A DNA stretch of 51,558 nucleotides from positions 1 through 51,558 of the forward strand of contig WRML01000001.1 in assembly GCA_009777165.1 (NCBI GenBank). Reading direction: 5' to 3'. The position numbers and the translations under genes were made by a program. Positions within the stretch are counted from its first letter, which is position 1. Each line of letters opens with the position of its first letter. Positions 13,872-42,537 of the stretch are shown piece by piece. The stretch comes from Kiritimatiellota bacterium (GTDB lineage Bacteria > Verrucomicrobiota > Kiritimatiellia > RFP12 > UBA1067). Under the pieces are notes generated by a model. The model was not told the DNA's origin. It did no database searches and worked only from the letters and a program-made list of their open reading frames with translations.

Positions 13872-13910
13872 GAAAGGGGGGTTGCAAGGGCTTTGCAACC
13901 CCCTTTCTTT
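13872..13910. terminator. bidirectional hairpin terminator after the Dam gene
   Basis: GGGGGTTGCAA (13877..13887) pairs with TTGCAACCCCC (13893..13903), flanked by A-rich and T-rich runs. Confidence 0.55.
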
Positions 13911-14670
13911 ATGGCGTGATGATGATCTCGGCGAACCTCCTTCCCGTGCGGTCTTTGTTGGTCATGGCGGCGTGGGTGGAGACGGCCTTGAACCTGCACC
14001 CCTTGAACGCGGCGCGGTTGGGGGGGCTGTCGTTCAGGGTTACCACCCACGTGCCTTTGAGCCCGGCCAGCACGCCGCGCAGCCGCTCCACGTCGCCGCC
14101 CGTCCAGCCCTTGTAGGCGGCGAGGCCGTCTTCGGTCGTGTAGGGCGGGTCGATGAAGTGCAGGGCCTCGGGGCAGTCGTACAGGCGCACGCAGCGCTCC
14201 CAGTCGAGGCTCTCGACGGTGACGCGGTCGAGCCGCCTGTTGAACGCGGCGAGGCGGCGCAGCACCCCGGACGCGCTGTTCCTGCCGAGCCGTTTGACGC
14301 CGTAGCTGTGGGCGTCGGCGCCGAACGAGTACAGGTTGCGGTAGAGGTAGCCGGCCGCGCGCTGTATCTCGGTCCTGTGCGGGTGCCCCTTCGACTCGGC
14401 GAACAGCTGCCGGCTGTCCACGCTGAGGCGTGTCTCGCGGATGACGGCGGGGAGATGGTATTTGACCTGTTTGTACAGGTTTATCAGTTCCCCGTCCGTG
14501 TCGTTGAGCACCTCGTGGTAGCTCGGCCGTTTGGCGAGCAGCACGGCGGCGCCGCCGCAGCAAGGCTCGACGTAGACCTTGTGCGGGGTGCCGTCGATGA
14601 CGGGCAGGAGGTGCCTGAGCATCCTGCCCTTGCCGCCGGGGCGGCGTATGATGGGCGTCACTCTTCCCAT
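13909..14670 (-). CDS. N6-adenine DNA methyltransferase, D12 (Dam) class
   Basis: ATG at 14670 (MGRVTPIIRRPGGKGRML). VEPCCGGAAVLL motif I-like block and FIDPPYT motif IV. Confidence 0.8.
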   Translation of the reverse strand: MGRVTPIIRRPGGKGRMLRHLLPVIDGTPHKVYVEPCCGGAAVLLAKRPSYHEVLNDTDGELINLYKQVKYHLPAVIRETRLSVDSRQLFAESKGHPHRTEIQRAAGYLYRNLYSFGADAHSYGVKRLGRNSASGVLRRLAAFNRRLDRVTVESLDWERCVRLYDCPEALHFIDPPYTTEDGLAAYKGWTGGDVERLRGVLAGLKGTWVVTLNDSPPNRAAFKGCRFKAVSTHAAMTNKDRTGRRFAEIIITP

Positions 14671-14876
14671 GCCAGCTCCCCCCGGATGCACTTGTCTATG
14701 CGCTCGCACACGAAGCGGGCGCAGTTGACGGGCCATGAGTTGCCGAGCATGAACATCCGCGCGTAGTCGCCGAGCGGTCTGCCGTTGGCGCCGCTGACGG
14801 CCGTGTGGCCGTCGGGGAAGCCCATCAGGCGTTCGTACTCGTGTTCGTTTTTAGAATGGACTACGTGACGACAAGA
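14658..14876 (-). pseudogene. C-terminal remnant of a C5-cytosine DNA methyltransferase
   Basis: The open minus frame reads KNEHEYERLMGFPDGHTAVSG...MFMLGNSWPVNCARFVCERI, matching the ERLMGFP and GNS(V/W) C-terminal motifs of Dcm-type enzymes. No catalytic N-terminal part. Not in the ORF track (55 codons from the first ATG). Confidence 0.5.
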
Positions 14877-18547: not shown

Positions 18548-18570
18548 GATTTTCTCCTTTTCCTTTTGAG

Positions 18571-18675
18571 TTTCCAGTTTCCAGTTTCCAGTTGTCGATG
18601 GCCGTCGATGGCCGTCGAAATTCCTCACTCCTAATTCCTCACTCCTCACTCCTAACTCCTCACTCCTCACTCCTT
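18571..18675. repeat. junction low-complexity element
   Basis: (TTTCCAG)x3, then (GTCGATGGCC)x2, then CTCACTC/CTAATTC/CTAACTC heptamer run. Confidence 0.8.
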
Positions 18676-18680
18676 CCGGC

Positions 18681-20570
18681 CTACCAGCACGGCCCGGTCT
18701 TGCCCGGGTGCCCGCCCCCCTCATGGCCGCCGCCCGGCGTGTCCGCGCCCGGGTGGTCGCCGTCGTGCCCGCCGCCGTCGCCGTAGGGCGTGCCGTCCGG
18801 CGCGCCGTCGTGGGCGCACTCGCGATCCTGATCATCCGGGCCCGCCGCGTCCGCGTCCCTCGGCTCGTTGACGAGGAAATACGCCCTTCTTTTTACTGGG
18901 TTGCCGTCCGCATCCACGTCCGAGACGTACTCGACCTCCCGCAGCTCCGCCTTGTTGTTATCCTCCGGCAGCCTGGAGGGGTCAACGACCGCCGTCGCCG
19001 GGTCGTTCGTCTGCCCGGCCTGCTCCGCGCCGATCTTGGTTTTCTTGCCCGGCGAGAACTCGGTCGTCTTCACGGGCGCGACGGCGGTGTGGTCAACCTT
19101 GGCGTCGTCCTTCGGCTCGCCCGTGGCGCGGGCGTTCGAGGAGGTGGCGCGGCGCTGGTTGCGCCATCCGGTCATGAGCCCGGCGAGGTCCTGGGCGGAG
19201 AGCTGGGCGGGCGGCCCGAAAGTCACCTCCATCAGGTCGGCGGCGAGGTCATGGCCGACCTCCTGGCAGATGAGGCCGCCGCGCGTCTGCCCCGGCACGG
19301 GCCACGCGGTGAGCGGCGGCCGCGCGGTGACGCCGAGCGCCTCGCCGTCGTGCGCGTGCTGCGCGAGGATCGCCTCCGCGAGGCCGTCCGGCACCCACTC
19401 CCCGGAGGTCGCGGAGCTGCTCTCCACCCACGAGTACCTGCGCGTCTGCGCGCTGGTGGTGATGAAGTCCATGGTCAGCAGCACGTCCTCCTCCACGTCG
19501 ATCTCCTCGTTGTTTTTGCCGAGCGTGGGGATTTTCGCCTTGACGCGGAAGGTGTCCATCTCGGCGCGGAGCCCGGCAGCCCCGATGTCCTTCATCGGCA
19601 CGGAGGTGATGCGCGGCAGGTCGCCGGAGCGCGACGCGTCCTTCAGCTCCAGGTAATGCTCGTCCACGTTCTCGAGACGCGGGTGCTTCTCTTTCCACCA
19701 CGCCTTGTTCGTCTGCCAGTCCTGCGGGATGTCCTCCGTCTCCACCTTCAGGCTGGCGGAGGTGACGGAGCCGCCCGCGCCGCTCAGGTCGAGCGGGATG
19801 TAGAGAACCCTCTTGCCGTCGGCGGTGTCCCCCGCCGTCTGCACGTCCACCTTGCGGTAGGCGTTGCCGTTGAAATCCCCGGTCGTCTCGATCTCCAGCA
19901 CCACGCCGTCCGGCGGCGAGCCGCTGCGCGACTCGGAGAGCAGCGTCCGGCGCAGCCCCGGGTCGTCCATCCATGCCGCCTCCGCGCCCGCGCCGACGTT
20001 CAGGACGGGGACGGGGCCGGAGTAGTCGAACCACGTGGCGACGGCGGGGAACAGGCGCAGGCAGCGCATCAGCGCCTGGGCGAGCGTGACGCTGCGCTGC
20101 TCATCCGCCGGCAGACAGATTTCCGGCACGCTGACCGCGCCGACGGCGAGCGCGCCCGTCGCGGCCGCCGGCGCGAGGATGTCGAGGACCTGGTCCTTCA
20201 GCGTCATCGGCGAGCCGCTCTGCCCCTGGTTCAGGATGACCCGCGAGAAATACTGCGCCGCCGGCCCGGACGCGCCGAGCGCCATCCACTGCTGGCGGTA
20301 GATGAGGTCGTCGAGCGTCTGCCACGGACCGCGCGCGGTGTAGGGGCGGCTCACCGTTGTCCCGCGCGAGTCCTCGCGCTCCCGCGCATAGATTTTGCCG
20401 CTGAACACCAGCCGCCCGTTGTGGCGCACGTGGACGGGATCGCCCACCTCGAACGCGACGCCCGGGCACCCGAACGCGAACGTGTCCGCCGCCAGGTTGT
20501 TGAGCCTCAGGCTCCCCGCCGTCACGCTGAAAACACCGCTTGTTGATGACACTGCCCAGTCGCCCCTCAT
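18681..20570 (-). CDS. tail hub / baseplate-like structural protein
   Basis: 629 aa. ATG 20570 behind the A8-CGGAG-T8 motif. N-terminal FEVGDPVHVRHNGRLVFSGKIY is reminiscent of gpD/hub N-termini. His/Gly-rich C-terminus. Confidence 0.45.
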   Translation of the reverse strand: MRGDWAVSSTSGVFSVTAGSLRLNNLAADTFAFGCPGVAFEVGDPVHVRHNGRLVFSGKIYAREREDSRGTTVSRPYTARGPWQTLDDLIYRQQWMALGASGPAAQYFSRVILNQGQSGSPMTLKDQVLDILAPAAATGALAVGAVSVPEICLPADEQRSVTLAQALMRCLRLFPAVATWFDYSGPVPVLNVGAGAEAAWMDDPGLRRTLLSESRSGSPPDGVVLEIETTGDFNGNAYRKVDVQTAGDTADGKRVLYIPLDLSGAGGSVTSASLKVETEDIPQDWQTNKAWWKEKHPRLENVDEHYLELKDASRSGDLPRITSVPMKDIGAAGLRAEMDTFRVKAKIPTLGKNNEEIDVEEDVLLTMDFITTSAQTRRYSWVESSSATSGEWVPDGLAEAILAQHAHDGEALGVTARPPLTAWPVPGQTRGGLICQEVGHDLAADLMEVTFGPPAQLSAQDLAGLMTGWRNQRRATSSNARATGEPKDDAKVDHTAVAPVKTTEFSPGKKTKIGAEQAGQTNDPATAVVDPSRLPEDNNKAELREVEYVSDVDADGNPVKRRAYFLVNEPRDADAAGPDDQDRECAHDGAPDGTPYGDGGGHDGDHPGADTPGGGHEGGGHPGKTGPCW

Positions 20571-20694
20571 AAAAAAAACTCCGTTTTTTTTAGTTTTTAG
20601 TTTCGATTCGGCTCGACTCTTCCCGATTCAACTCGATCCGGATCGATAACTAAAAACTTCTTCCTACTTCTCAACTCCTCAACTTCTCAACTTC
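20571..20694. repeat. junction low-complexity hairpin element
   Basis: TAGTTTTTAGTTT arm, CGATTCGGCTCGAC...CGATCCGGATCGAT core, AACTAAAAACT arm, then CTTCTCAAC units. Confidence 0.75.
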
Positions 20695-21069
20695 TTAAAA
20701 CCCCTCCACGCTGTACCTCATGACCAGCGAGCAGCCGATCTGGCGGATGTCGAGATCGCGCAGGGTGGCCTTCGCGAGCAGCGCGGCGCCGTCTATCTCC
20801 AGCGCGCCCTGGCGCGGCGCGGCCGCCTTCATGCCGATGGCGACGGTTTGCGCCTGGGCGACGGTGCCGTAGGTGCGCGTCACGCCGAACGACACGGCGC
20901 AGCTGTCGCACCCCACGTGCTCCGCCTCGATGCCGTCCGCATTGAGGTACTCGTAATCCTCCGTGCCGGGCGTGAGGCGAATGTTGATCCCTTCCGGGCC
21001 GACCGGGTCGCCCTCCGCGCCGGCGGCGCCGCCGGCGCAGAGAATCGCCCCGTTGAGCTTGATCTGCAT
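20695..21069 (-). CDS. hypothetical virion protein
   Basis: ATG 21069 (MQIKLNG) avoids overlap with the upstream lipoprotein gene. Sits in the tail gene block. Confidence 0.4.
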   Translation of the reverse strand: MQIKLNGAILCAGGAAGAEGDPVGPEGINIRLTPGTEDYEYLNADGIEAEHVGCDSCAVSFGVTRTYGTVAQAQTVAIGMKAAAPRQGALEIDGAALLAKATLRDLDIRQIGCSLVMRYSVEGF

Positions 21070-21085
21070 CCCTAATTGTCCCCCC

Positions 21086-21478
21086 TCACTCGCAGTTCCC
21101 GTCAACGCAGTCCCTGATGGCCTGAGCCTCGCCGACGGTCAGCTTGCCGCCGCCGGTGAGCTTGTCCCAGGCGGCGAGCGCCGCCGCCGTCAGCCCGGCC
21201 GTGGGCCTCGCCCCGCCCGTGCCGGCGCTGGCGCCGCCCCACGCCGCAGCGACCTCGGGCTTCACGTCCGTGGTCTGCGTCGGCGTGTTGCGCTGCGAGT
21301 CGCCGCCGCCGTCCGCGCTGGCGTAGAGCCCGTCACCGACCTTCAGCGTCACGTTGCTTGAGTCCGACACATAGATGTCCCGGTACGCCGTCCTGTTCGA
21401 GCGGCTCGCCGGGTCCGCGCTCTGGCAGCCCGCCAAAGCCGCGGCCGCCAGCATCATCATTACCATTGCCTTTTTCAT
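21086..21478 (-). CDS. phage lipoprotein (spanin-like or exclusion protein candidate)
   Basis: MKKAMVMMMLAAAALAGC lipobox, AGGAG upstream, next to the holin-like gene. Confidence 0.55.
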   Translation of the reverse strand: MKKAMVMMMLAAAALAGCQSADPASRSNRTAYRDIYVSDSSNVTLKVGDGLYASADGGGDSQRNTPTQTTDVKPEVAAAWGGASAGTGGARPTAGLTAAALAAWDKLTGGGKLTVGEAQAIRDCVDGNCE

Positions 21479-21497
21479 TCCTGTTCTCCTTTCTTTT

Positions 21498-21538
21498 GAG
21501 TAGCTAGTAACTAGTTACTAGCTACTAGTTACTAGTCA
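21498..21538. repeat. junction palindromic heptamer element
   Basis: GAGTAGCTAGTAACTAGTTACTAGCTACTAGTTACTAGTCA is self-complementary. Confidence 0.75.
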
Positions 21539-21715
21539 CTTCCCCTTCAGTTTGTCACTGAGTTTATTCCGTTTTAGCGCGAGCTTAATCAGCTTAGGCC
21601 CGCACCTCTTCACATCCGCAATCCGCTTGCGGAAAGCCTTGCAGAACGGCACCGCGCCGTCCACTGCCAGATGTCCGCAGGGCCTTGCCCTGCCGTTGCA
21701 GAATTCAATCCTCAT
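21536..21715 (-). CDS. small basic Cys-containing protein (59 aa)
   Basis: Not in the ORF track (<60 aa). MRIEFCNGRARPCGHLAVDGAVPFCKAFRKRIADVKRCGPKLIK... The ATG overlaps the end of the holin-like ORF. Confidence 0.3.
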   Translation of the reverse strand: MRIEFCNGRARPCGHLAVDGAVPFCKAFRKRIADVKRCGPKLIKLALKRNKLSDKLKGK

Positions 21716-21905
21716 CGTTCACCTTCACGACCGTCCTGCTCACCGTATAGCCCATGACCGACAGTATGGTGATAACCTGCCCGACGACCTGCTCCAGCCC
21801 AGTCCCCGCCGGGATGGCCCCGGACATCGAAACCAGCCCTATGACCGCTGCCAGAAGCGACAGCCAAAATTCTGTCGTCTTCCATCCCGGTTTTCGCTCA
21901 TTCAT
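21705..21905 (-). CDS. holin-like two-TM protein
   Basis: 66 aa. KTTEFWLSLLAAVIGLVSM and VVGQVITILSVMGYTV hydrophobic segments with a charged C-terminus. Confidence 0.45.
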   Translation of the reverse strand: MNERKPGWKTTEFWLSLLAAVIGLVSMSGAIPAGTGLEQVVGQVITILSVMGYTVSRTVVKVNDED

Positions 21906-21942
21906 TCCCTGTCTCCTTCTTCATCTGTCCCTTCCTTTTGCC

Positions 21943-21998
21943 CGACTGCCATCGATCGCCATCGGATGCCATCGAGATTCCTAATTCCTAACTCCTCC
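21943..21998. repeat. junction low-complexity element
   Basis: (GCCATCGA-type)x4 core followed by TTCCTAATTCCTAACTCCTCC. Confidence 0.75.
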
Positions 21999-22003
21999 AG
22001 AAA

Positions 22004-22855
22004 TCATTTTCTCCAATTAAAGAGTTTAGCCACCTCTTCCTCTGTAAGAGCCTTCTTGAAAATCATCAAGTCGCACCAGTCGCGCCACGGATTTCTAAAA
22101 TACATTGGCACAATAGTAGGCACAAACGAATCACTGACAACACCTGCGTCAGATAACACGCCGTTGACATAAAGCTTGATGACTCTATCCGAACCGACAA
22201 CCTCGCCGACCGTCAACGCTTTATGTGTCCAAACGTTCACTTGGTCGTCCTTTGCGTAATTGGATAAAAAATTGGGCGAGGTTGTCTCCACGACCCCCGT
22301 GTTCCATCCGTACGCCCCGTTAGCCACCGATGAATTAGACGAATCAACAAATATTCCGTAACGAAGAGAAAGACCGCCAACAGGTGTAAGGCCTCCTCCG
22401 TATACTAACAGTTCGGCGTACGACCCGGCAACGCCAGATTCCCCTCTCCTCGACCACCAGCAAAAAGACGTTTCTCTTTCATCCGAATTGACAGTTTCGG
22501 CGAGCAAGTTCATGTGCGGGGCGGTTGTCACCATAATAGTGTTTGCATCTGCGCACTTGCCGTTCACGCCGTCGCTGGAGAATGTCGGCGTCCCCGCCTG
22601 CGTCAGGTGAAAACCATTACCGCTCCTGTCCGTCAGGTCCCCGTCAAACGCCCACCACGCGAGCGGGTCCAGGTCCAGCGGGTGGAAGGCGCCCGGCCAG
22701 ACCTCCTCCCCGCCGAGGCGCGCCGCTTTCGCGTCGCGCCCCCCCGCGATCATCCGCGCCACGCCCGGCATCCCGGCGGCGGCGGCCCCCGCCGCCGCGC
22801 ACGCCCCCCCGGCGATGAACGCCCTCCGCCGCATCCGGCGGCCATCGGCGGCCAT
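22004..22855 (-). CDS. LamG/concanavalin-like lectin domain protein with twin-arginine-like N-terminus
   Basis: ATG 22855 behind AGGAGT. RRMRRRAFIAGGACAAAGAAAAG N-terminus. LamG-like body (WAFDGDLTDRSGNGFH ... LYVNGV). The 3' half is clearly AT-richer than the 5' part. Confidence 0.55.
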   Translation of the reverse strand: MAADGRRMRRRAFIAGGACAAAGAAAAGMPGVARMIAGGRDAKAARLGGEEVWPGAFHPLDLDPLAWWAFDGDLTDRSGNGFHLTQAGTPTFSSDGVNGKCADANTIMVTTAPHMNLLAETVNSDERETSFCWWSRRGESGVAGSYAELLVYGGGLTPVGGLSLRYGIFVDSSNSSVANGAYGWNTGVVETTSPNFLSNYAKDDQVNVWTHKALTVGEVVGSDRVIKLYVNGVLSDAGVVSDSFVPTIVPMYFRNPWRDWCDLMIFKKALTEEEVAKLFNWRK

Positions 22856-22857
22856 CG

Positions 22858-22900
22858 AGACTCCTGACTCCTCACTCCTCACTCCTAACTCCTGATTCCT
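22858..22900. repeat. junction low-complexity element
   Basis: GACTCCTGACTCCTCACTCCTCACTCCTAACTCCTGATTCCT. Confidence 0.75.
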
Positions 22901-23859
22901 CACGGCCCGTCCTCCAAAATGATGTACAGCGTCTGCGGGTCCGGGACGGCGATCGCGTCGTACTCCCCCTGCGTGCCGGTCCAGATCGCGGCGACGGTCG
23001 CGCTGGAGACCTTGCCCGCGGCGGCGGCGGCGACGTGCCCCTCGGTCGCGAGCGTGCCGCCCGCGCCGTCCCGCGGCAGCGCGAACACCGCCTTGGGGGC
23101 CTCGCCCCACTGCAGGGCGAACGTCCCGTCCGGCGCGACGGTCAGCTCCGACATCACCGGCGCTTCCGGCGAATAGTCCGCCAGCACGACCGCGCCAGCC
23201 GCGCCGTCCAGCAGGACGGTCGTGCCCTTGGCCGCCTGCGCGTTGATCTCCTCGCCCACGAGGAAGCGGTGCCGTTTGTGTGTGAACCCGCGCCCCCAGA
23301 GCTCGAACGCGTCGCCGACGCCGTTGGCCTCGCCCTTCCGCACGGCGGCGGCCACCGCCCCTGCCACGTGCTCCTCGGTCGCATACCCCCCCAGCGCGCC
23401 CGGCAGGAGCCACGGCGCGTTGAGGCAGGGCGTCGCGAGGAAGTCCAGGTACGGGATCGGCGGCGTAAGGGTGTTCGGTTTCCGCCCCGGCGAGGGCAGT
23501 ACCCGCAGCACCCCGTTCGCCTGATAGTTATGCCCGTCCGCGCCGATGAAGAAGGTGTATTGCGGCGCCCCCGTGTAATACTCCGGCAGCCACTGGAAGG
23601 CGTTGCCGGCCGTGTTCGTGAACCAGACGGCACCCATGCCGTTCGTCTGCCAGTAGAGCGTGAACGTCATCCCGTTGGTCGCCAGCGGCGCGCCGTAGGC
23701 GAGCCACGCCGGCTCGAACGTGATCGCGTCCCCGTCGTAGCGCGTGAACTGCGCCGGCGCGGGCCGCGCCACGTCCGTCTCCCAGCGCAGCGGTATCTGC
23801 GCGGCGGCGGTGGCCGCCAAAAGTAATAGGTAACAGGTAATAAGTAATAGGTTTTTCAT
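22900..23859 (-). CDS. tail-fibre-like protein with hydrophobic N-terminus
   Basis: C-terminal IWTGTQGEYDAIAVPDPQTLYII matches a motif common in phage tail-fibre proteins. The N-terminal MKNLLLITCYLLLLAA is encoded by ATAGGTA-type heptamer repeats. Confidence 0.5.
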   Translation of the reverse strand: MKNLLLITCYLLLLAATAAAQIPLRWETDVARPAPAQFTRYDGDAITFEPAWLAYGAPLATNGMTFTLYWQTNGMGAVWFTNTAGNAFQWLPEYYTGAPQYTFFIGADGHNYQANGVLRVLPSPGRKPNTLTPPIPYLDFLATPCLNAPWLLPGALGGYATEEHVAGAVAAAVRKGEANGVGDAFELWGRGFTHKRHRFLVGEEINAQAAKGTTVLLDGAAGAVVLADYSPEAPVMSELTVAPDGTFALQWGEAPKAVFALPRDGAGGTLATEGHVAAAAAGKVSSATVAAIWTGTQGEYDAIAVPDPQTLYIILEDGP

Positions 23860-23870
23860 AAATTCCTTTT

Positions 23871-23981
23871 AGTTTCCAGTTTCCAGTTTCTAGTTTCCAG
23901 TTGTCGACTGCCATCGACAGCCATCGGCGGCTATCGATTGCCATCGAAATTCCTCACTCCTAATTACTAACTCCTAACTCC
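23871..23981. repeat. junction low-complexity element
   Basis: (AGTTTCC)x4, (GNCATCGA)x5 core, CTCACTCCTAATTACTAACTCCTAACTC. Confidence 0.8.
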
Positions 23982-24871
23982 ACCGAATACAGCCTCCCGT
24001 CGCTCACGCGCCGGTGCGCGACGAACCCGAGCTGGCCGAAGCGGAGCTGGGTGCTGCCCCACTGCAGCGGCCCGGTGACGAGCGCGGCGTTGTGGAGCGT
24101 GACCTCCAGCCCCCCGCCCTGGCCCGTGATCACGAGGTCGCCGCCCGTGCGCGTGGACGCGCCGCGCCCCTTCGACACGGGGAGCGCGGCGAGTATCTCG
24201 CCGAGCCCCTTGCCCAGCGGCGTGCAGGACGCGCGGACGGTCACGTCCGTCAGCAGCAGGTCCACGGTCCCGACGTCGTCGGCCGGGAGCGGCTCGAGGC
24301 CCAGCTCGAAGGTGACGGTCCAGCCGTCAACGGTGTCGGGCAGCGTCAGGCTGCCGAACGCGGCGGTGTACGCGGTGCCGGTGATGGCGTTGGGGTCGGG
24401 GTACCCGGCGGCATACGCCTCCTCCGCGACCTTGCAGAACGCGTCCGGCGCGTCCGGCCTCTTGTTGTCCGCGACGAGCGCGGTGAACTCCGCCTGCCCG
24501 AACGCGGTCTTGACCGCGCTCAGACGCAGGTCCGGGATTTTCGTGAGCGCGGCATTGAGCAGCGTCACCTTCTTGCCGTCCGTGCCGTGGACGGTCAGCG
24601 GCGTGTCGGCCGCGCCGCAGACGCGCGAGCCGATCGCCGGCGCCTGGTGCGGGTAGAGGATGTCCAGTATCGGCTGGCTGATGACGCCGCCCGGCGTGAG
24701 CGTCACGACGCCCCGCTGGTCGGTCTTGATGGTGTCGAGCTTGCCGCTCACGCTGGAGGGGATGTCCTGCGTGGCGCTGTCGATGTTGACGGTGATGCCG
24801 TCCGCGTCGTGGATCACCACGCCGCCGTAACTCAGGGCCCCCGGCCCTGTCAGGATGTTCTTCCGTTCCAT
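23960..24871 (-). CDS. major tail (tube) protein candidate
   Basis: ATG 24871 behind AGGAG; the upstream 51 codons of the ORF track are junction repeats. About 300 aa, placed after the head-tail joining genes. Confidence 0.45.
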   Translation of the reverse strand: MERKNILTGPGALSYGGVVIHDADGITVNIDSATQDIPSSVSGKLDTIKTDQRGVVTLTPGGVISQPILDILYPHQAPAIGSRVCGAADTPLTVHGTDGKKVTLLNAALTKIPDLRLSAVKTAFGQAEFTALVADNKRPDAPDAFCKVAEEAYAAGYPDPNAITGTAYTAAFGSLTLPDTVDGWTVTFELGLEPLPADDVGTVDLLLTDVTVRASCTPLGKGLGEILAALPVSKGRGASTRTGGDLVITGQGGGLEVTLHNAALVTGPLQWGSTQLRFGQLGFVAHRRVSDGRLYSVELGVSN

Positions 24872-24890
24872 TCGGTCTTCTCCTTTTTTT

Positions 24891-24968
24891 GAGTTTTTAG
24901 TTTCCGGTTTCTCCTTTCCAGCGCTCGACAGCCATCGACTGCATTCGACTGCCATCGAAAACTGGGAA
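24891..24968. repeat. junction low-complexity element
   Basis: GAGTTTTTAGTTTCCGGTTTC units, then CGACAGCCATCGACTGCATTCGACTGCCATCGAAA core. Confidence 0.75.
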
Positions 24969-25430
24969 CTAACCATTCTCCACTTTTTTCGGCGGCGGCG
25001 CGAAAAGCGTCGTGAGCGCCTCAAAGCTGATGTTGTAGATGAGCGCGCCTTTCTCCAGCACCGCGCTGGAGATGTCCTTGAACACGACGGTCTCGCCGTC
25101 CGGCAGACGGGCGAGGTTGAGCGCGACGGCGATGTGCCGCGCCGCCTCGCCGGCGGTGCGCATGTTCGCGCGCCCCCGGTTCATCAGCGGGCGCTCCGAA
25201 ACCTGCACGGCGATGTCCGCGCGCGCGGTGACGTTGCGGCTGTCGCTGCTCTCGGCCCGCGCGGACGGCACCGCCACGACCGCGACGATGCCCAGCCGCG
25301 CCAGGGCGCCCTTGACGGTGTCGTCGATGTCGCCCTTGTCCTCGCAGTGGATCTCCACGCCGGCGACGGCGAGGAACTCGTCCCTTGCAAGGATGTTGCA
25401 GACCTCCTGATGGATGGTTTCAAAAGCCAT
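24969..25430 (-). CDS. tail completion / head-tail joining protein candidate
   Basis: 153 aa. Starts 1 nt after the stop of the upstream gene. Called by position only. Confidence 0.4.
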   Translation of the reverse strand: MAFETIHQEVCNILARDEFLAVAGVEIHCEDKGDIDDTVKGALARLGIVAVVAVPSARAESSDSRNVTARADIAVQVSERPLMNRGRANMRTAGEAARHIAVALNLARLPDGETVVFKDISSAVLEKGALIYNISFEALTTLFAPPPKKVENG

Positions 25431-25431
25431 G

Positions 25432-26016
25432 TCAATCTCCTTTTTTCTCCAGTGCCCTCCGGATCACGCCGAGGATGCCCTCCTTCGCCGCGCCGCCCAT
25501 CGCCGCGTCGGTGGGCAGGAGGCTCCTGTCCTGCGGGATCAGCACCGACTTCGCGAGGATGTAGAGCGGCACCACCTGGCCCGGCCCCGGCGAGTAGGCG
25601 AGGTAGTCCGCGCCCTTCGGGCGGAAGATGACGCGCCCCTCAGCCCTGAGCTGGGCGACGCGCTTGCCGTATGAGATCGCGTGGACGGGGATCGTCAGCG
25701 CCTTGGCGATGACGGGGCGGACCGTGAACGCGCCGAACACGCGCCTGAACCCCGGCGAGCGGATCACCACGTGGGCGTCGAACCCCCGCGACCCGACGGC
25801 CACGGACTTCTCCGCCTCCCGCAGGTGCCCGGTCGGCTCCGCGCCGAGCCGCTGCGCGGTCTTGTGGTGCGTGCGCGCGGTCAGGCGCAGGTGCGCCGTG
25901 ACCAGCTTGCGCACGCCGTTCGCCGCGGCCCGGAAGAGCCGCGCCCGCGCGCTGCGGGACAGCACCGCCATCAGCGCGTCCAGGCGCGGGGTGCTCGGTG
26001 TCGTGTTAATCTGCAT
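25432..26016 (-). CDS. virion morphogenesis / head-tail adaptor candidate (Mu gpG / HK97 gp10-like)
   Basis: 194 aa, ATG behind the A7-TCGGAG-T7 motif. TGHLREAEKSVAVGSRGFDAHVVI pattern. Confidence 0.4.
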   Translation of the reverse strand: MQINTTPSTPRLDALMAVLSRSARARLFRAAANGVRKLVTAHLRLTARTHHKTAQRLGAEPTGHLREAEKSVAVGSRGFDAHVVIRSPGFRRVFGAFTVRPVIAKALTIPVHAISYGKRVAQLRAEGRVIFRPKGADYLAYSPGPGQVVPLYILAKSVLIPQDRSLLPTDAAMGGAAKEGILGVIRRALEKKGD

Positions 26017-26036
26017 AAAAAAACTCCGATTTTTTT

Positions 26037-26158
26037 GAGTTAGGAGTTAGGAAGTAGGAAGTAGGAGTTTCGACACCCCCCGACGGCAATCGACTGCCAT
26101 CGAAACCAATAACTCCTAACTCCTACTTCCTAACTCCTAACTCCTAATTCCTAACTCC
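26037..26158. repeat. junction hairpin element
   Basis: Arm GAGTTAGGAGTTAGGAAGTAGGAAGTAGGAG, core TTTCGACACCCCCCGACGGCAATCGACTGCCATCGAAA, inverted arm CTCCTAACTCCTACTTCCTAACTCCTAACTCC. Confidence 0.85.
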
Positions 26159-26907
26159 ATTAACAGGTTCTCGGTGAACTCCGGGCCGAAATCCCGGAGC
26201 GCCCGCGCGATCTCGTCCTCATCCGGCGAGAGCGACTGCTCCCCGGGCAGGGGCGTCCCGGTGATGCCGAGGTCCCCCGCCTCCTCGCGGTCAACGGGCA
26301 CCCACTCGAGGGTCGAGCCGAACGCGAACGGCGGGTAGGGGTTGCCGAGGGTGTCGCCGAACCCGCCGGCGCCGTCGCCGAGCGCCTGCCAGACGGGGGA
26401 GTCCTTCCGCGCCGCCATCTGCGCGCGCGACGCGCCCTCCCAGCCGCAGGCGTCGCCCGCCGCCGCCCAGCGCTCGGCCCAGTCCTGCCGCGGCGCCTTC
26501 GCGCTGCCGACGCGCACCAGCTCCCACGCGGGGTAGGCCTCGAGCGTCCCCGCCGTCTGCGCGTTGACGCTCGCGACCGACTCCGCCATGGTGCGCTGGG
26601 TGTCGAGGATGAGCTGGAGGCGCGTGCGGCTGCCGAGGTCGGTGAGCGAGCCGGGGCTCTCCGGCACGTACCCCGACGCGTCAAGCCACGCCCGGAGCCG
26701 GTCCCGCGCGGTCTCGTCGCTGATCCTCCCCGCCGCCGCGTCCGCGCACACGTCCCGCATCTCCTTCAGGTACGCCGCCTCCGCCGTCCGCGCGCTGAAG
26801 ATGGACGTGCGGCGGATGTCTGCGGAAATCCGCCCGCGCGCCTCCCGCGAGGAGAGGTGCGTGGGCAGGATGGCTTTGTCCATGATGATCTGTGCGGGTG
26901 ACTTCAT
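26137..26907 (-). CDS. head morphogenesis-like protein (function uncertain)
   Basis: 256 aa, ATG behind A8-CGGAG-T8. The C-terminal ELGIRS residues are read from the junction repeat. Confidence 0.4.
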   Translation of the reverse strand: MKSPAQIIMDKAILPTHLSSREARGRISADIRRTSIFSARTAEAAYLKEMRDVCADAAAGRISDETARDRLRAWLDASGYVPESPGSLTDLGSRTRLQLILDTQRTMAESVASVNAQTAGTLEAYPAWELVRVGSAKAPRQDWAERWAAAGDACGWEGASRAQMAARKDSPVWQALGDGAGGFGDTLGNPYPPFAFGSTLEWVPVDREEAGDLGITGTPLPGEQSLSPDEDEIARALRDFGPEFTENLLMELGIRS

Positions 26908-26930
26908 AAAAAAAACTCCGTTTTTTTTTA

Positions 26931-27055
26931 GTTAGGAGTGAGGAGTTAGGAAGTAGGAGTTTCGATGGCAATCGATAGCCGCCGATGGCAATCGATGGCT
27001 GTCGAAACTGGAAACCGGAAACTTCTCCTCATTCCTAACTCCTAACTCCTAATTA
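26931..27055. repeat. junction hairpin element
   Basis: AGGAGT/AGGAAGT arm, (CGATGGC-type)x4 core, CTGGAAAC units, inverted CTCATTCCTAACTCCTAACTCCTAATT arm. Confidence 0.85.
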
Positions 27056-27060
27056 TTTCT

Positions 27061-27486
27061 TCAGTCGAGTACCCTTGGCGGGACGGTGACCTGCGGCACG
27101 CCGATGTCCGGCGCGGGGTCCGGGAGAAACTCCTCGTCCGGCGGCTCGATCACCAGCCGGCCGAGGTTGTCGCGGACGTGGTTCGCCCGCCGCCACTCCT
27201 CCACGCGCAGCGCGTCGAGGAGGGACTCCATGCCCGGAAGCCGCGTGTAGGCGCGGTAGCGGAAGTCGGCGAGGACGTGGACCTCGATCTCCGAAGGCAG
27301 CGCGAGGGGGCGCACGTCCAGCGCGGCCACCCGCGCGAGCGCGCCGCGCCACTCCCCGGCGACGGCGGCGGCGATCTCCGCCAGCACGTCGCCCTGCGCG
27401 GCGGACGTCGCCGCGCGCGCCAGCGCCTCGTGCTCCGCCCCCGCCACGCGCTTCAGCAGGTCGTCAGGTGTCAGTTCCCGCCACAT
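27061..27486 (-). CDS. head-tail connector candidate (Mu gp36 / DUF1320-like)
   Basis: 141 aa immediately after the capsid gene. VLADFRYRAYTRLP pattern. Confidence 0.45.
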   Translation of the reverse strand: MWRELTPDDLLKRVAGAEHEALARAATSAAQGDVLAEIAAAVAGEWRGALARVAALDVRPLALPSEIEVHVLADFRYRAYTRLPGMESLLDALRVEEWRRANHVRDNLGRLVIEPPDEEFLPDPAPDIGVPQVTVPPRVLD

Positions 27487-27508
27487 GAAAAAAACTCCGT
27501 TTTTTTTA

Positions 27509-27624
27509 ATTAGGAATTAGGAATTAGAAATTAGGAATGAAAGAAGTTTCCAGTTTCCAGTTTCCAGTTGTCGATGGCTGTCGAAACCAGTAACTCCTAA
27601 CTCCTACTTCCTCATTCCTAACTC
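27509..27624. repeat. junction hairpin element
   Basis: (TTAGGAA)x4 arm, (GTTTCCA)x3, GTCGATGGCTGTCGAAA core, inverted CTCCTAACTCCTACTTCCTCATTCCTAACTCC arm. Confidence 0.85.
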
Positions 27625-28536
27625 CTACGGTTCCGGGGTTGCGGTCTCGACGAGGCGGACCAGCGTCTGCCGCCCGTCCTCGCCCGGGTCGCCGACGGCG
27701 ACGCCGAAGTTGCTCTCGACGGACATCGAGGTCTTGCCGGTCGCGATCTCCGTCGCGACGACGGTGTTGAACGCGAAGCCCGTCGAGCCGTCCTGGCTCG
27801 TCTCGAACACGTCGTAGATGTCCGTGCGCAGGGGCCGCAGGAGGCGGCTCGCGCCGGCCAGCGCGGACGGGTAGGCGATGAAGCCGGGGATCGTCAGGTT
27901 CGGCGCCTCCACGAAGTCGCGGAAGCCGAACAGCCCGGGCAGGTGCCCGCTGAGGATTGCCTCGCGCCCGCCGTACACGCTCGCGTCCAGGTCCACCAGC
28001 AGCGCGGTGAAGTACGCGGGGTTCAGCACCACCACGCAGTCGCCCGGCGCCATGCCGTTGCGCGTCACGAGCGCGCGCAGCGCCCCGACCTTCCCCTTGT
28101 TGAACGCCGCCAGCGTGACGACCTCCTCCTCCGGGAAGTTCGCCGCGGTGACCAGCCCGAACATCGCGTTGACGATCTTCAGGCCCACCGAGCGCGCGTT
28201 CAGCCGCGCCTTGCCCTCCCAGTACGTCGGCTGGAAGGTGGCGACCTGCACGGGGCTGACCGCGAAGCCCGCGATCGGCCGCTGGCTGATGGTCACCTTC
28301 GTGTCCTTCAGCGTCGCGACGGGGCGGATGTAGTTGTTGGCGGCGTCGTCCCACTCCTCCGCTTCGTCGGCCTTCACCAGCGGCACCACGACGGTCTCGC
28401 CGGAATGGTTGATGAATTCGCTGGAGAAGTCCAGCGAGAAGCTGCCGATGCGCTCGAGCTCCAGCTCGATGCACTCGATGAAGCGGCTGGTGTACACCTG
28501 CGCCGCCGTGTTCAGGTCTGTCTGCACAGTATTCAT
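27625..28536 (-). CDS. major capsid protein
   Basis: 303 aa directly downstream of the protease/scaffold gene, with AAGGA upstream. Called by size and position. Confidence 0.6.
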   Translation of the reverse strand: MNTVQTDLNTAAQVYTSRFIECIELELERIGSFSLDFSSEFINHSGETVVVPLVKADEAEEWDDAANNYIRPVATLKDTKVTISQRPIAGFAVSPVQVATFQPTYWEGKARLNARSVGLKIVNAMFGLVTAANFPEEEVVTLAAFNKGKVGALRALVTRNGMAPGDCVVVLNPAYFTALLVDLDASVYGGREAILSGHLPGLFGFRDFVEAPNLTIPGFIAYPSALAGASRLLRPLRTDIYDVFETSQDGSTGFAFNTVVATEIATGKTSMSVESNFGVAVGDPGEDGRQTLVRLVETATPEP

Positions 28537-28546
28537 AACGTTTCCT

Positions 28547-29446
28547 TTACTTTTTCTCCTCGGTGCGGATGCGGTTGATCTCCGCCGCGTGGTTCCTGAG
28601 GAACTCGCGTTTCGCCTTGCCCGGGGGCAGGGCGTCGTACTCCTGCGCGCGGTTCAGCACCGGCGCGGGCGCGGCGGCCGGCGCGGGCCGCCGGTTCCAG
28701 AACGGCGTCTGCTTCGGCGCGTCCAGGTCAAGCTGCGCCACGAGCGCCTTGGCGGCCTCGCGGTTCTTGACGTAGAGCGCCTTGAACGCCTCGCGGTTCT
28801 TGATCGCGCCGCCGGCGCGGTTGGCGATCTCCTCCGCCTCCCTCCCGGCGGCCTCGTCCTGCAGGGCCGCCATGCCTTCGGTGAGGCTGGCGATCGCGGC
28901 GAGGATGTCCTCCTCCGCCGCCGTCTCCGGCAGCCCCAGCGCAAGCGCTATCTTCGTGTAGTCCATAATTGGACCTCCATTTTGGCCCGGGGGCGTGGCC
29001 GCCCCCGGCGATCTGTTCAACACCGGGGCCACCGGCAGATTGGGCTTGTTGATGAGCGCGACGCTGACGAGGCGGTCGGGCCTCCCGTCCTTGTCGAGCG
29101 TCCACCCTGGCGAGACGAAGCGGTAGCCGCGCCCGTTCACCGCCGCCGCGCCCTCTGGCGTGAAGCGGAAGTCCCCGTAGAGCCCGCCCGCCTCGACCGC
29201 GAGGTTGCCGCACCATGCGGCCGCGCGCGTGCTGCCGCCCTCCTCGGCGGCGTGGTCGAAGTCCACCAGCACCTCCGCCGCCGAGTTGCGCGCGACGGCC
29301 TCGAACGCGGCGCGGTCGCACACCTGCACGACGTTCTCGGGCTTGCCGCCCGCGCCCTCGCGGACGTTCGGGTAGCGGCCGAACGGCGCGATCTGCACCC
29401 TCAGCACGCCGCTCTCCGGCACTCTCGTCATTTTCGTCTCGTTCAT
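28547..29446 (-). CDS. Mu gpI-like prohead protease / scaffold
   Basis: ATG 29446 behind GGAGGAAG. VDFDHAAEEGGSTRAAAWCGNLAVEAGGLYGDFRFTPEGAAAVNGRGYRFVSPGW matches the gpI family pattern. Coiled-coil C-terminal half. Confidence 0.7.
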   Translation of the reverse strand: MNETKMTRVPESGVLRVQIAPFGRYPNVREGAGGKPENVVQVCDRAAFEAVARNSAAEVLVDFDHAAEEGGSTRAAAWCGNLAVEAGGLYGDFRFTPEGAAAVNGRGYRFVSPGWTLDKDGRPDRLVSVALINKPNLPVAPVLNRSPGAATPPGQNGGPIMDYTKIALALGLPETAAEEDILAAIASLTEGMAALQDEAAGREAEEIANRAGGAIKNREAFKALYVKNREAAKALVAQLDLDAPKQTPFWNRRPAPAAAPAPVLNRAQEYDALPPGKAKREFLRNHAAEINRIRTEEKK

Positions 29447-29623
29447 GGTTGACTTCCTCCAACGGGTTGTGCTACTCTCAAAATCACTGGCGGGAAACCC
29501 CCTGCTCCTAACCAATACGTGTTGCGGGGATGTGTAGGTGGGAATCTGGACTGGCGAAAGCCGACGAGGGTCAGCCCCATCAACCTGCCTTTAGGCGCTC
29601 TGGAGTCTCTCCAAGGCGCCATT

Positions 29624-33639: not shown

Positions 33640-33658
33640 GGCTTCCTCCCTTTTTCCT

Positions 33659-33727: not shown

Positions 33728-33742
33728 GCATTCCACTTCGCT

Positions 33743-36299: not shown

Positions 36300-36318
36300 A
36301 ACACACCCTCCAACCTTC

Positions 36319-42521: not shown

Positions 42522-42537
42522 GAAAAGGAAGACAGAC

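Follow-up and report, generated by a model that had tools for sequence, protein, structure and literature searches.

Here we describe a Mu-like prophage most of whose gene junctions carry composite simple-sequence-repeat cassettes, in which nested inverted arrays of 7–8-nt units surround an array of TCGAnnnnnn units. The prophage is 31 kb long and lies at ~13.9–45.2 kb of the window (the whole 51,558-nt stretch of DNA analysed) in a Kiritimatiellaeota genome. Both this composite structure and membership in a widespread class of intergenic tandem-heptamer repeats are well supported. For their role we propose, from sequence and with a probability of roughly one half, a looped-out intercistronic RNA hairpin followed by a standard ribosome-binding site, formed by self-propagating repeats that are tolerated and probably partly co-opted.

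Short-period tandem arrays are concentrated in the prophage, which holds 40 of them after merging (1,982 nt in total) against 0–2 in each of 20 dinucleotide shuffles. In the host DNA on either side (20.2 kb) there are five small arrays, just one of which shares a prophage unit type; array density is ~1.3 per kb in the prophage and 0–0.17 per kb in host DNA of the same organism and its relatives. A preliminary description of this DNA had listed 16 repeat-bearing sites. All 16 hold the repeats described, as checked in the sequence and by Tandem Repeats Finder, which returned period-7 or period-8 arrays at every one and period-10, TCGA-phased arrays at 18594, 20603, 21947, 22836, 23904, 24925, 26081, 26962, 34398 and 38847. 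Arrays at 23823–23852, 30314–31005, 34313–34474, 37187–37230, 37385–37410, 38915–38968 and 50839–50890 had been missed. Elements had also been placed at almost every junction. They are present, between stop and start codons, at ~13 of the ~20 late-operon junctions and at five early ones, but not at tightly coupled or overlapping late junctions (21070–21085, 25431, 28537–28546 and 32305–32308), nor at a late junction of 177 nt (29447–29623).

The elements share a nested plan, with outer 7–8-nt tandem arms around a self-complementary core of 10-nt TCGAnnnnnn units; many end at the 3′ side in a conserved ribosome-binding module (A-run, CGGAG, T-run) followed by ATG. The arm–core–arm plan proposed earlier applies to most elements. 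It does not extend to J1, J4 and J5, where the AGGAG-type arm is followed by a core but has no complementary partner (sense z > 0), or to J3, J14, J16, P3 and P5, which have no TCGA core. Unit type does vary from junction to junction, and AGGAG words do lie on the coding strand, as had been reported. Sub-modules such as (AGTTTCC)n-core are found in both orientations relative to transcription.

All late elements are on the minus strand. The full plan is seen at J8 (26017–26160), where (AGGAGTT/AGGAAGT)x7, a core and (ACTCCTA/ACTTCCT)x4.7 precede A7-TCGGAG-T7 and ATG; it folds at −71.6 kcal/mol (z = −9.0, relative to dinucleotide shuffles) with the upstream gene's stop codon within the stem. J9 (26908–27060; −61 kcal/mol, z = −7.9) comprises an AGGAGTT arm, (AGTTTCC)x2, a core of about four TCGA-phased units, an ACTCCTA arm and A9-CGGAG-T8, and J10 (27487–27624; −47.2 kcal/mol, z = −5.4) an AGGAGTT arm, a short core, (CTGGAAA)x3, an ATTCCTA arm and A8-CGGAG-T7. 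At J15 (34304–34475), (GGGGTTAA/GGGGTTCA)x5 and (TTAACCCC)x7 flank about four TCGA-phased units, folding at −89.1 kcal/mol (34330–34475; z = −10.9); its G-rich arm could form a G-quadruplex. J2 (20571–20694; z = −2.7 sense, −6.7 antisense) consists of (GAAGTTGA)x3.8, a AGTTTTTAGTT/AACTAAAAACT stem around five TCGA-phased units, and an A8-CGGAG-T8 ribosome-binding mini-hairpin. J6 (23860–23985; z = −3.3) has an AGGAGTT-type arm, which encodes the final codons (ELGVSN) and stop of the upstream gene, then about 4–5 TCGA-phased units and (CTGGAAA)x4. In J7 (24872–24968; z = −2.3), about 3–4 such units with CCAG/CTGG flanks are followed by degenerate CTGGAAA/CTAAAAA units and an AAGGAG ribosome-binding site.

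Among the coreless late elements, J3 (21479–21545; z = −3.6) is a self-complementary (ACTAGTA/ACTAGTT)x6 array ahead of an AAGGAG ribosome-binding site. J14 (33640–33742), between a small-terminase-like gene and the terminase gene, is (CACAAAGG)x3, an A/T loop and (CCTTCGTG)x3; every repeat unit carries an identical G.T mismatch, and z is −4.8 on the sense and −11.0 on the antisense strand. The J16 hairpin (35300–35440; z = −3.5 sense, −6.2 antisense) pairs GTCAGAN/AGGTAAT arms with TATCACC/TATTACC arms, and the same region (35169–35440) contains an (AGGAATN)x5 array at 35173–35207, directly upstream of the first late gene. J1 (18548–18680) reads, in sense, (GGAGTGA/GGAGTTA)x8, a (TCGACGGCCA)x2.5 core, (CTGGAAA)x3 and an AAGGAG ribosome-binding site; its outer arm is unpartnered (sense z = +0.27), and a small hairpin forms from the core alone. 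J4 (21906–22003; z = +0.48) is (AGGAGTT/AGGAATT)x3 followed by a (TCGATGGCA)x3 core, and J5 (22832–22899; z = +1.2) is (AGGAGTN)x6 followed by a (CGATGGCCGC)x2.2 core that overlaps candidate ATG starts of the downstream protein (N-terminus RRRAFIAGGA).

The early elements are on the plus strand. P1 (37183–37232) and P2 (37377–37412), of repeat families D4 and D9, are (AGGAATT)x4–6 arrays, each immediately preceding the start codon of a small early gene; they bracket the first of the two genes and lack a complementary arm. P3 (37992–38129; z = −4.0) is a stop-to-start cassette of (AGTTTTT)x4, a central spacer, (AACTAAA)x5, A9-CGGAG-T8 and ATG. P5 (40338–40475; z = −5.8) is a second copy of it, with 93% identity over the whole stop-to-start span, the upstream gene's stop inside the shared sequence and the likeness ending at the flanking codons. 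P4 (38811–38893; −39.3 kcal/mol, z = −7.7) runs from (AGGAATG/AGGAATT)x4 through a (TCGATGGCNG)x3.4 core to AATTCCTAATT, GAAAAAATCGGAGGCTTTTTT and ATG.

Because several arrays lie in frame within coding sequence, including that of a host gene, the elements are neither purely junctional nor purely those of the prophage. On the minus strand at 30314–31005, two inverted 8-nt GTTGAGAA/CAACTTCT arrays lie on either side of a 24-nt unit repeated 12.5 times; the reading frame of the Portal_Mu ORF runs without a stop through all of these giant arrays, giving ...TEVEKLKS.../...SSTSRLLD... At 23823–23852 (minus strand), (CCTATTA/CTTATTA)x4, of the same unit family as a J16 arm, encodes the hydrophobic N-terminus LLLITCYLLLL, a signal peptide, of a tail-tip-domain protein. 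Within host gatB (50839–50890, minus strand), (TAGGAAT/GAGGAAT/TAGGCGT)x7.4 is of the prophage unit type and encodes the insert RNEELGIRNEALGVRNHS, which relatives lack.

The family extends beyond this genome. Independent assemblies of three other samples (L001, L002 and L083) carry the same junction elements, J8 being near-identical in all three and the window, so an assembly artefact is unlikely. The SD-bearing A/T mini-hairpin is kept beside the ATG at six junctions and in L001, L002, L085 and L086. In L001 and L002 the genes corresponding to 24969–29446 are 99.5–100% identical to those of the window (~7 substitutions in ~4.5 kb), and within this stretch J9 and J10 are swapped or mosaic; just outside it, L001 has a different element in place of J6. 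J9 of L001 is mosaic, joining an arm of the J16 type to a J2-type core (94% to the J2 core). J10 of L001 and L002 has a J8-like core and 3′ arm (93% between L001 J10 and window J8), with exactly one 7-nt unit distinguishing the L001 and L002 versions. One viral contig, IMGVR_UViG_3300006226_000076, has the same units in the same grammar, and no protein shared between it and the prophage was detected. It is well supported that the elements change length by whole units and are copied or exchanged between junctions and with this contig, and hence that their turnover greatly outpaces that of the genes on either side. Homologous prophages have zero or few arrays, and in L049 and L050 the junction homologous to J14 is only 0–8 nt long. 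Heptamer hairpins of a simpler kind are common across viral and environmental metagenomes, and the TCGA core is missing from most array-rich viral contigs. In another array-rich viral contig, L030, it is the C-rich strand that forms the unpaired excess arm beside start codons, so the AGGAG polarity does not hold everywhere.

Most elements pair beyond what their composition would give. Compared with dinucleotide shuffles, 13 of the 16 fold better by three or more standard deviations (z ≤ −3) on one strand or both, and in a cross-pairing test J8 and the elements whose unit types are unique (J3, J14, J15 and J16) paired best with their own partner arms; the complementarity claimed earlier is therefore real. 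Folding both strands against shuffles revealed no asymmetry such as selection on sense RNA should leave: J6, J7, J8, J10 and P4 fold better as sense, J9, J14, J15 and J16 as antisense. None of the elements looks like an intrinsic terminator, and no Rfam family matched them. At J8, J9, J10, J14, P3 and P5, the stop codon is inside the stem or at most 12 nt from its base, and the stem ends 15–29 nt ahead of the ATG.

We infer that each cassette would fold into a long stem-loop within the polycistronic transcript. With the stem base at or within ~12 nt of the upstream stop, 70–120 nt of repeat would be looped out, leaving the stop and the downstream ribosome-binding site adjacent, so that an insertion would be nearly neutral for translational coupling. 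The resulting 25–50 bp of double-stranded RNA might block exonucleases or serve as an RNase III substrate, which would set mRNA stability and expression segment by segment, and slippage in unit number could offer a fast route for retuning them. Since related phages do without them, the elements are dispensable; together with their in-frame persistence in permissive protein loops, this argues for tolerated self-propagating repeats, probably partly co-opted by the phage, and not for an essential phage device. Among the four roles suggested in the preliminary description, mRNA structure or processing is the best backed, by indirect support; ribosome standby and phased protein binding are possible. 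Counting against the RNA hairpin are the missing strand asymmetry, the unpartnered J1, J4 and J5, the poor folding of the L001 variants of J9 and J6 (z = −1.05 and −1.55) and the reversed polarity in L030.

Much of this evidence also suits growth of purely selfish or neutral, functionless repeats, which we consider somewhat unlikely. Replication slippage, together with template switching between quasi-palindromic arms, would expand small inverted repeats into hairpins of tandem arrays, recombination between low-complexity arrays would shuffle them, and selection would purge just the gene-damaging versions, leaving a pile-up at junctions and in permissive protein loops. Turnover is extreme beside near-invariant genes, some variants have lost the hairpin, folding has no strand bias, related phages lack the elements, and arrays sit in frame in gatB, the portal ORF and a signal peptide. 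Each arm is also homogenised separately, all J14 units carrying one common mismatch, and polymerase slippage has been proposed in the literature to explain heptamer abundance. Against such growth stand the recurrence of specific units, ordered grammar and ribosome-binding module in a viral contig with no detected protein in common, the precise siting between stop codon and ribosome-binding site, and the excess over host density, which would not be expected from a generic mutational process of the host.

Action at the DNA level seems a good deal less probable. Here the TCGA decamer core would be a phased array for a putative DNA-binding protein of phage or host (a stoperator-type repressor, nucleoid protein or methyltransferase), or the arrays would be homologous linkers for module exchange between co-infecting phages. 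In favour are a palindromic TCGA every 10 nt, about one helical turn per unit, strand-symmetric folding energies, and sub-modules in both orientations, which befit a duplex-DNA site, and a D12-class adenine methyltransferase is encoded at 13909–14736; the usual targets of this class, however, are GATC-like sites, not TCGA. Absent from so many elements and contigs, the phased core cannot account for the whole class. As to linkers, a role proposed in the preliminary description, the elements themselves clearly recombine, and window–L001 divergence jumps from ~0.1% to 3% exactly across J7; exchange of flanking genes rests on this one breakpoint, a second, near 29.5 kb, falling in an array-free junction, and direct repeats of identical units at a dozen junctions would also favour deletions. 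Very unlikely, in our assessment, is a use of unpaired AGGAG/AGGAA arrays as RNA landing pads or sponges, whether as ribosome standby sites supplying the start codon downstream or as multi-site decoys for a regulator that binds GGA, for example CsrA. The unpartnered AGGA-type arms (J1, J4, J5, J6, P1, P2 and 35173–35207) do place AGGAG/AGGAA on the sense strand in at least 7 of 7 cases, which are not independent since arrays copy one another. P1, P2 and 35173–35207 adjoin start codons, and CsrA, S1 and cold-shock proteins have been suggested as binders of the TAACTGA heptamers upstream of Beggiatoaceae start codons. Against this, most AGGAG arms are taken up in pairing with a complementary arm, many arms (CTAAAAA, ACTAGTT and CACAAAGG, for example) have no GGA motif or SD-like word, and L030 has the opposite polarity.

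The earlier statement that no such architecture had been described was too strong. Intergenic tandem heptamers are reported to be the commonest periodic intergenic repeat in prokaryotes, and heptamer hairpins have precedents in Xanthomonas and Haemophilus influenzae. The Xanthomonas GGGAATC repeats differ among close relatives and often form convergent pairs, capable of stem-loops, that lie close to the upstream ORF's 3′ end; the (ATCTTTC)n hairpin in the H. influenzae hmw 5′-UTR is a target of RNase III, whose processing controls expression and repeat-number change. The prophage cassettes are an extreme composite form of these common, functionally unexplained repeats. Genuinely unusual are the composite plan of arms, TCGA decamer core and ribosome-binding module, the saturation of a phage operon, the copying of cassettes from stop to start codon, and the modules held in common with a viral contig with which no shared protein was detected.

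The prophage is Mu-like and transposable, spans approximately 13.9–45.2 kb of the window and lies in a metagenome-assembled Kiritimatiellaeota genome. Pfam domains identified in it are Portal_Mu, Mu-like_Pro, Terminase_6N, Terminase_6C, a TniB/AAA_22 MuB-like ATPase, a phage tail-tip domain and a D12-class methyltransferase. The late genes are encoded on the minus strand, from 35.2 to 16.3 kb, and the early genes on the plus strand, from 37 to 45 kb. The left host flank includes galactokinase, phosphoglucomutase and a tRNA; the right flank includes a CRISPR-like array, sugar-metabolism genes and gatB. The tRNA gene (13656–13742) is directly left of the first prophage gene, which encodes the D12 methyltransferase (13909–14736), a position unexpected under Mu-type random integration, and the prophage ends are taken here as approximate. 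The CRISPR-like array (45786–46264), just right of the prophage end, contains ~8 copies of a ~35-nt repeat (GGTGTAAGCACAGCCGAAAGGCGGTTGAGTCACAC) separated by spacers of ~30 nt, giving a period of 66 nt. The last bases of the contig (51511–51558) are a long stretch rich in C, or in G when read on the minus strand, and may be an artefact of the assembly end.

Tandem Repeats Finder identified 40 merged arrays of 7–10-nt units in the prophage (1,982 nt in total), compared with 0–2 arrays per dinucleotide shuffle of the same sequence (n = 20). The 20.2 kb of host flanks contained five small arrays, only one of which is of a prophage unit type. Array density is ~1.3 per kb in the prophage, versus 0–2 arrays per 12–21 kb in the host DNA of relatives. 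Most arrays lie between a stop and a start codon, and at least five are in frame within ORFs. All of the ranges in which a preliminary description had reported hairpin-forming elements at gene junctions contain tandem arrays of 7–8-nt units, and most also contain a 10-nt TCGA-phased array. Elements at late-gene junctions are referred to as J1–J16 and their early-gene equivalents as P1–P5; the whole element, from stop codon to start codon, is termed a cassette.

On the sense strand, an element follows the order upstream stop codon, arm X, optional inner arm Y, core, Y′, X′, ribosome-binding module and ATG. Arm X is usually composed of (T/G)AGGA(G/A)(T/G)-type heptamers and X′ of (ACTCCTA)n, whereas Y is (AGTTTCC)n and its complement Y′ is (GGAAACT)n. 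The core consists of 2–5 TCGAnnnnnn units bounded by TTTCGA...TCGAAA, and the ribosome-binding module is A7–9/CGGAG/T7–8, followed by ATG. Further arm families are GTTGAGAA, AGTTTTT/AACTAAA, ACTAGTA, CACAAAGG/CCTTCGTG, GGGGTTAA/TTAACCCC and GTCAGAA+AGGTAAT/TATCACC. Many elements are incomplete, one partner being absent: J1, J4 and J5 lack X′, J6 has only X, core and Y′, and J9 has X, Y, core and X′.

When folded as RNA, 13 of the 16 elements exceeded dinucleotide shuffles in stability by at least 3 s.d. on one or both strands; J1, J4 and J5 folded no better than the shuffles. Predicted energies were −71.6 kcal/mol for J8 (z −9.0), −61 kcal/mol for J9 (z −7.9), −89.1 kcal/mol for J15 (z −10.9) and −39.3 kcal/mol for P4 (z −7.7). 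Because shuffling destroys repeats, we added a cross-pairing test in which each 5′ half was paired with each 3′ half. The own partner arm was the best pairing for J3, J14, J15 and J16, which have unique unit types, and for J8; elements of the AGGAGTT family paired with one another's arms, as expected since their units are shared. Folding and cross-pairing thus bear out, for most elements, the inverted arms of the preliminary description, with complementarity beyond that of shuffled repeats. The stems predicted for J8, J9, J10, J14, P3 and P5 comprise 25–45 pairs, and those of P4 and J15 are also long; J15 (GGGGTTAA) is in addition prone to form a G-quadruplex, as are known intergenic heptanucleotide repeats. 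In the first six, whose minimum-free-energy stem includes both arms, the stop codon is within the stem or no more than 12 nt from its base, and the stem ends 15–29 nt before the start codon, the interval being occupied by the ribosome-binding module alone.

The same junction architecture recurs in three contigs of this phage assembled independently from other samples (L001, L002 and L083), and the elements are therefore probably not assembly artefacts, a worry raised in the preliminary description. Exact-protein look-ups returned only these three as further contigs of the phage, and no DNA match to GenBank phages was found. J8 is almost identical across the window and all three contigs, and genes at 24969–29446 are 99.5–100% identical between the window and L001 or L002 (~7 substitutions in ~4.5 kb). 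J10 of L001 and L002 has another core and 3′ arm and is 93% identical to J8 of the window; J9 of L001 combines, as a mosaic, a J16-type arm with a core 94% identical to that of J2; and J6 of L001 is a different, shorter element. Exactly one 7-nt unit separates J10 of L001 from that of L002. Within the window, P3 (37992–38129) and P5 (40338–40475) are 93% identical from stop codon to ATG and their similarity stops at the flanking codons, indicating that a whole intercistronic cassette was copied between two junctions. MITEs are defined units with terminal inverted repeats and target-site duplications; the P3/P5 duplicated unit is 138 nt long and aligns without any such flanking duplication. Apart from P3 and P5, the elements are not copies but mosaics. 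Divergence between the window and L001 rises from ~0.1% to 3% exactly across J7 (24872–24968) and exceeds 20% beyond ~29.52 kb, so that mosaic breakpoints coincide with one array-bearing junction (J7) and one array-free junction (~29.52 kb). As judged by sequence comparison, these shifts indicate recent recombination with breakpoints at gene junctions. We conclude with high confidence that the cassettes are slippage-prone, recombining, composite repeats.

Relatives identified by their terminase (50–75% identity) come from genomes of Kiritimatiellae, Verrucomicrobia and Lentisphaerae and carry zero or few 7–8-nt arrays, built from other units and mostly located just upstream of start codons, which rules out a conserved feature of the phage lineage. 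In two homologous prophages (L049 and L050), the junction equivalent to J14, 103 nt in the window, is 0–8 nt long. Since relatives largely lack arrays and manage with such short spacers, the elements are dispensable additions.

The same grammar and units are found in one viral contig, IMGVR_UViG_3300006226_000076 (L085/L086), which includes the composite (AGGAATT)n-(AGTTTCC)n-core-(AATTCCT)n-A8CGGAGT7-ATG, as well as GTCGATGGCCGTCGATGGCC modules, GTCAGAT/AGTAATA/TATTACC modules and GAGAAGT octamers. A tblastn comparison of ~30 window proteins with the fetched stretches of nine array-rich viral contigs gave no shared protein, at E ≤ 1e-5, that would explain the shared cassettes. Beyond L085/L086, the TCGA-core subfamily was found in one short metagenome contig (L090). 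In IMG/VR, a strict three-unit TCGA pattern had no matches, and a two-unit pattern had 16, of which L085 alone was genuine. Heptamer hairpins of a simpler kind are common. The 19-mer TAGGAGTTAGGAGTTAGGA matched 46 IMG/VR contigs, some of which (L030 and L018) carry (AGGAGNT)n-loop-(ANCTCCT)n at many junctions. The 19-mer AGTTTCCAGTTTCCAGTTG matched at least 119 JGI metagenome stretches, whose G+C content ranges from 0.35 up to 0.71; very often it takes the intergenic form (AGTTNCC)n-loop-(GGNAACT)n. Inverted heptamer pairs thus occur in L018, L030 and many metagenome contigs. The capsid protein had no relatives in JGI metagenome contigs or IMG/VR. Related contigs were 1–7 kb long and some ended inside repeats; if confirmed, this would mean that arrays of this kind break up metagenome assemblies.

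Arrays are also tolerated within coding sequence. The host gatB gene (49741–51213) contains an in-frame array at 50839–50890; where relatives read GGGVTIQTPxGxKRIRI, the window GatB reads GGGVEI-RNEELGIRNEALGVRNHS-VKRIRI. At this site, a relative with a 90% identical GatB (L210, 363–1880) carries a palindromic in-frame insert of another sequence (AGTAGCGGCGACATCC...GGATGCCGCCGCTACT). Both inserts follow a G10–11 run, in a loop after GGGV(T/E)I; gatB is essential and, judged from these two sequences, the loop seems to be a hotspot for insertions. In the prophage, a 692-nt array block (30314–31005) is open in the portal frame, and a TATTACC-type array encodes the hydrophobic N terminus of the tail-tip-domain protein. 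If confirmed, the in-frame arrays in gatB and the portal gene would show that the array-making process is a source of new peptide segments as well. In a related Kiritimatiellaeota genome (L226; GCA_009778475.1), host operon DNA contains (AGTTTTT/AGTTTCT)x5.7 directly upstream of a start codon (5183–5222) and, nearby, (AACTAGA)x4.6 (6132–6163); host chromosomes of the clade therefore carry low-density arrays of similar units.

The feature is real and belongs to the known class of tandem heptamers. Its units, 5–11 nt long in the definition of the class, are arranged head to tail beyond chance length, lie mainly between genes and near gene ends, are polymorphic in copy number and sequence between close relatives (the unit step in J10 and the replacement of elements) and form convergent pairs with stem-loop potential, as in Xanthomonas. 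In most genomes examined, no long simple-sequence repeat is more abundant than the heptanucleotide type, and tandem heptamers are reported to be the commonest periodic repeat between prokaryotic genes, with "no clear clue" to what they do. In Xanthomonas, 89–93% of GGGAATC repeats are intergenic; they are found close to the 3′ end of the ORF that precedes them, differ even among close relatives and form convergent pairs in 70–75 cases. The phage elements resemble these, the Nostoc GGGGA(C/T)T repeats and the cyanobacterial STRRs in having 7-nt tandem units that are overwhelmingly intergenic, near the upstream ORF 3′ end and mostly between co-oriented genes. They differ in having many unit types within one 31-kb genome, in the nesting of outer arm, inner arm and 10-nt TCGA core with a conserved ribosome-binding module, in saturating a phage operon while few occur in host DNA, and in forming duplicated stop-to-start cassettes whose modules are common to a viral contig with no detected shared protein. 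In the TAACTGA heptamers of marine Beggiatoaceae, cyanobacteria and Bacteroidetes, direct repeats lie a few nucleotides upstream of start codons; the unit is common to distant lineages and phyla, which suggests horizontal spread, and a post-transcriptional role has been proposed. Arrays near phage start codons are similar in being heptamers just upstream, with units common to a viral contig that has no detected shared protein, but TAACTGA repeats are chromosomal, have a single unit type and are inverted in only 1 of 170 sets.

According to the abstract that describes them, Borg repeats are pervasive tandem repeats, virtually absent from the host, fast-evolving and both intergenic and in frame, encoding low-complexity peptides. 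As far as that abstract goes, they resemble the prophage arrays as rapidly evolving repeats of a mobile element found both between and within ORFs, and differ in being archaeal, direct and A-enriched, with no arm-core-arm plan or ribosome-binding module; inverted arms are not mentioned in the abstract. Rickettsia palindromic elements can sit in frame inside protein-coding genes that survive the insertion, and the gatB heptamer array, the L210 gatB insert and the portal-ORF arrays are likewise tolerated in-frame inserts. Rickettsia palindromic elements, however, are copies of defined 100–150-nt elements and not short-unit tandem arrays. What appears new is the composite of nested arms, TCGA-decamer core and ribosome-binding module, its saturation of a phage genome, the stop-to-start duplication of cassettes and a module repertoire common to a viral contig without a detected shared protein. 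Within the limited literature searched, we found no description of composite cassettes and nothing on Kiritimatiellae prophage repeats.

Several other identities were excluded. Rfam at gathering thresholds matched only a tRNA. A terminator scan of 18–36 kb gave 7 hits versus 15.6 expected; the sole hit within any array (30924–30947) is antisense, in the in-ORF arrays, and the big stems continue as an A run, CGGAG and then a U run, not as a direct U run. Enterobacterial REP/BIME elements are mosaic palindromes at operon 3′ ends and intercistronic sites that stabilise upstream mRNA segments and whose presence is strain-dependent; REPs are copies of a conserved ~35-nt palindrome mobilised by RAYT transposases. 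The phage elements are similarly mosaic, modular, palindromic and intercistronic, but their arms are 7–8-nt units of many types without a common palindrome consensus or an Rfam match, and REP/BIMEs have no arrays of 7–10-nt tandem units. No RAYT (IS200/IS605-type) transposase was found among the ~30 proteins scanned with Pfam. Mycobacteriophage-type stoperators are asymmetric ~13-bp repressor sites that recur at many junctions, always oriented the same way with respect to transcription; here the TCGA core occurs in both orientations on one strand among co-oriented genes (GTCGATGGCC at 18594 versus TGCCATCGA at 21947) and is missing from several elements. CRISPR arrays have 24–48-nt repeats with unique spacers of similar length, whereas the junction units are 7–10 nt and contiguous, the true CRISPR-like array being at 45.8–46.3 kb. 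A three-frame stop barrier was rejected, stops in all three sense frames being present in only some elements. Super-periods of 21 and 24 nt were rejected as evidence of coding origin or helical phasing, 14-nt super-periods being equally common, and are read as hierarchical duplication.

For the functional role of the cassettes, our leading reading is a looped-out RNA hairpin, to which we give a probability of roughly one in three to one in two on the basis of modelled folds and analogy. A self-complementary insert of any length would loop out and leave the stop codon and the ribosome-binding site adjacent, a geometry that would explain both the tolerance of arrays at junctions and why complementarity is usually kept. 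If transcribed, the predicted stems would form at least ~20 bp of largely continuous intercistronic double-stranded RNA, the structure expected of RNase III hairpins; stems of 25–45 bp are of the size that RNase III cuts. In Haemophilus influenzae, RNase III processes the (ATCTTTC)n hairpin in the hmw1A 5′-UTR; this processing sets expression, and changes in repeat number depend on the RNA hairpin. This system offers the best mechanistic precedent for a possible role of the cassettes, since there too one arm of a long RNA hairpin, upstream of a gene, is a heptamer array. It differs in being a single phase-variable virulence locus, in a 5′-UTR rather than between cistrons, with a G-rich non-repeat right arm unlike the phage arms. 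The intercistronic RNase III sites of phage T7 are hairpins at many junctions of long transcripts, and processing leaves stabilising 3′ stem-loops; the phage elements share the placement of hairpins at many gene junctions, but each T7 site is a unique and conserved structure of ~20 bp that contains internal loops, and none is repetitive or hypervariable.

Against selection on the sense RNA, neither strand was a consistent winner in folding energy, so that the signature sought in G·U versus A·C asymmetry was rejected; the outer stem is lost in some variants; and the purine/pyrimidine polarity next to start codons in L030 is the opposite. The main rival to the looped-out hairpin is purely selfish or neutral repeat growth, followed by DNA-level roles as phased protein-binding sites or recombination linkers. 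A more ambitious proposal is that the cassettes are portable stop-to-start modules, which a dedicated mechanism would carry from one junction to another and from phage to unrelated phage within the host group, in which the self-complementary TCGA-phased core, as a DNA or RNA hairpin, would be recognised by a specific nuclease, recombinase or RNase, and which would standardise cistron expression and serve as preferred breakpoints for module exchange; taken jointly, we regard these claims as improbable. Near-identical genes with differing cassettes offer a compact natural experiment on whether the elements work as hairpins in RNA (for processing, stability or coupling), as sites in DNA or not at all, and with ~40 arrays in one transcription-dense 31 kb, the natural variants permit turnover rates to be measured. 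If confirmed, the sharing of cassettes between phages with no detected common protein, together with breakpoints at cassettes, would revive the old "linker" idea of phage modular evolution.

Other features of the prophage were observed alongside the arrays. An island of low G+C content (35850–36930; 0.40 versus ~0.66) contains three minus-strand ORFs with a GC3 of 0.31–0.39, one of them repressor-like by eye; this module of the regulatory region was probably acquired recently. A 46-nt element with the hairpin CCCCCTTTCAAAAGGGGG occurs four times (39469–39514, 39928–39973, 42413–42458 and 42546–42591), within or beside the large early genes at 38978–40354, 40473–42521 and 42460–43647. The copies are 76–98% identical to the reference copy, two of them lie inside 106-nt repeats that are 89% identical to each other, and the elements might be binding sites for transposition proteins. 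Downstream of the portal domain, two copies of a conserved direct repeat of ~21 nt (ACCCCGTTGCAAAACG) are present at 30585–30630, and the repeat is found at the equivalent position in two distantly related prophages (L054, 12732–12772; L055, 12689–12728).
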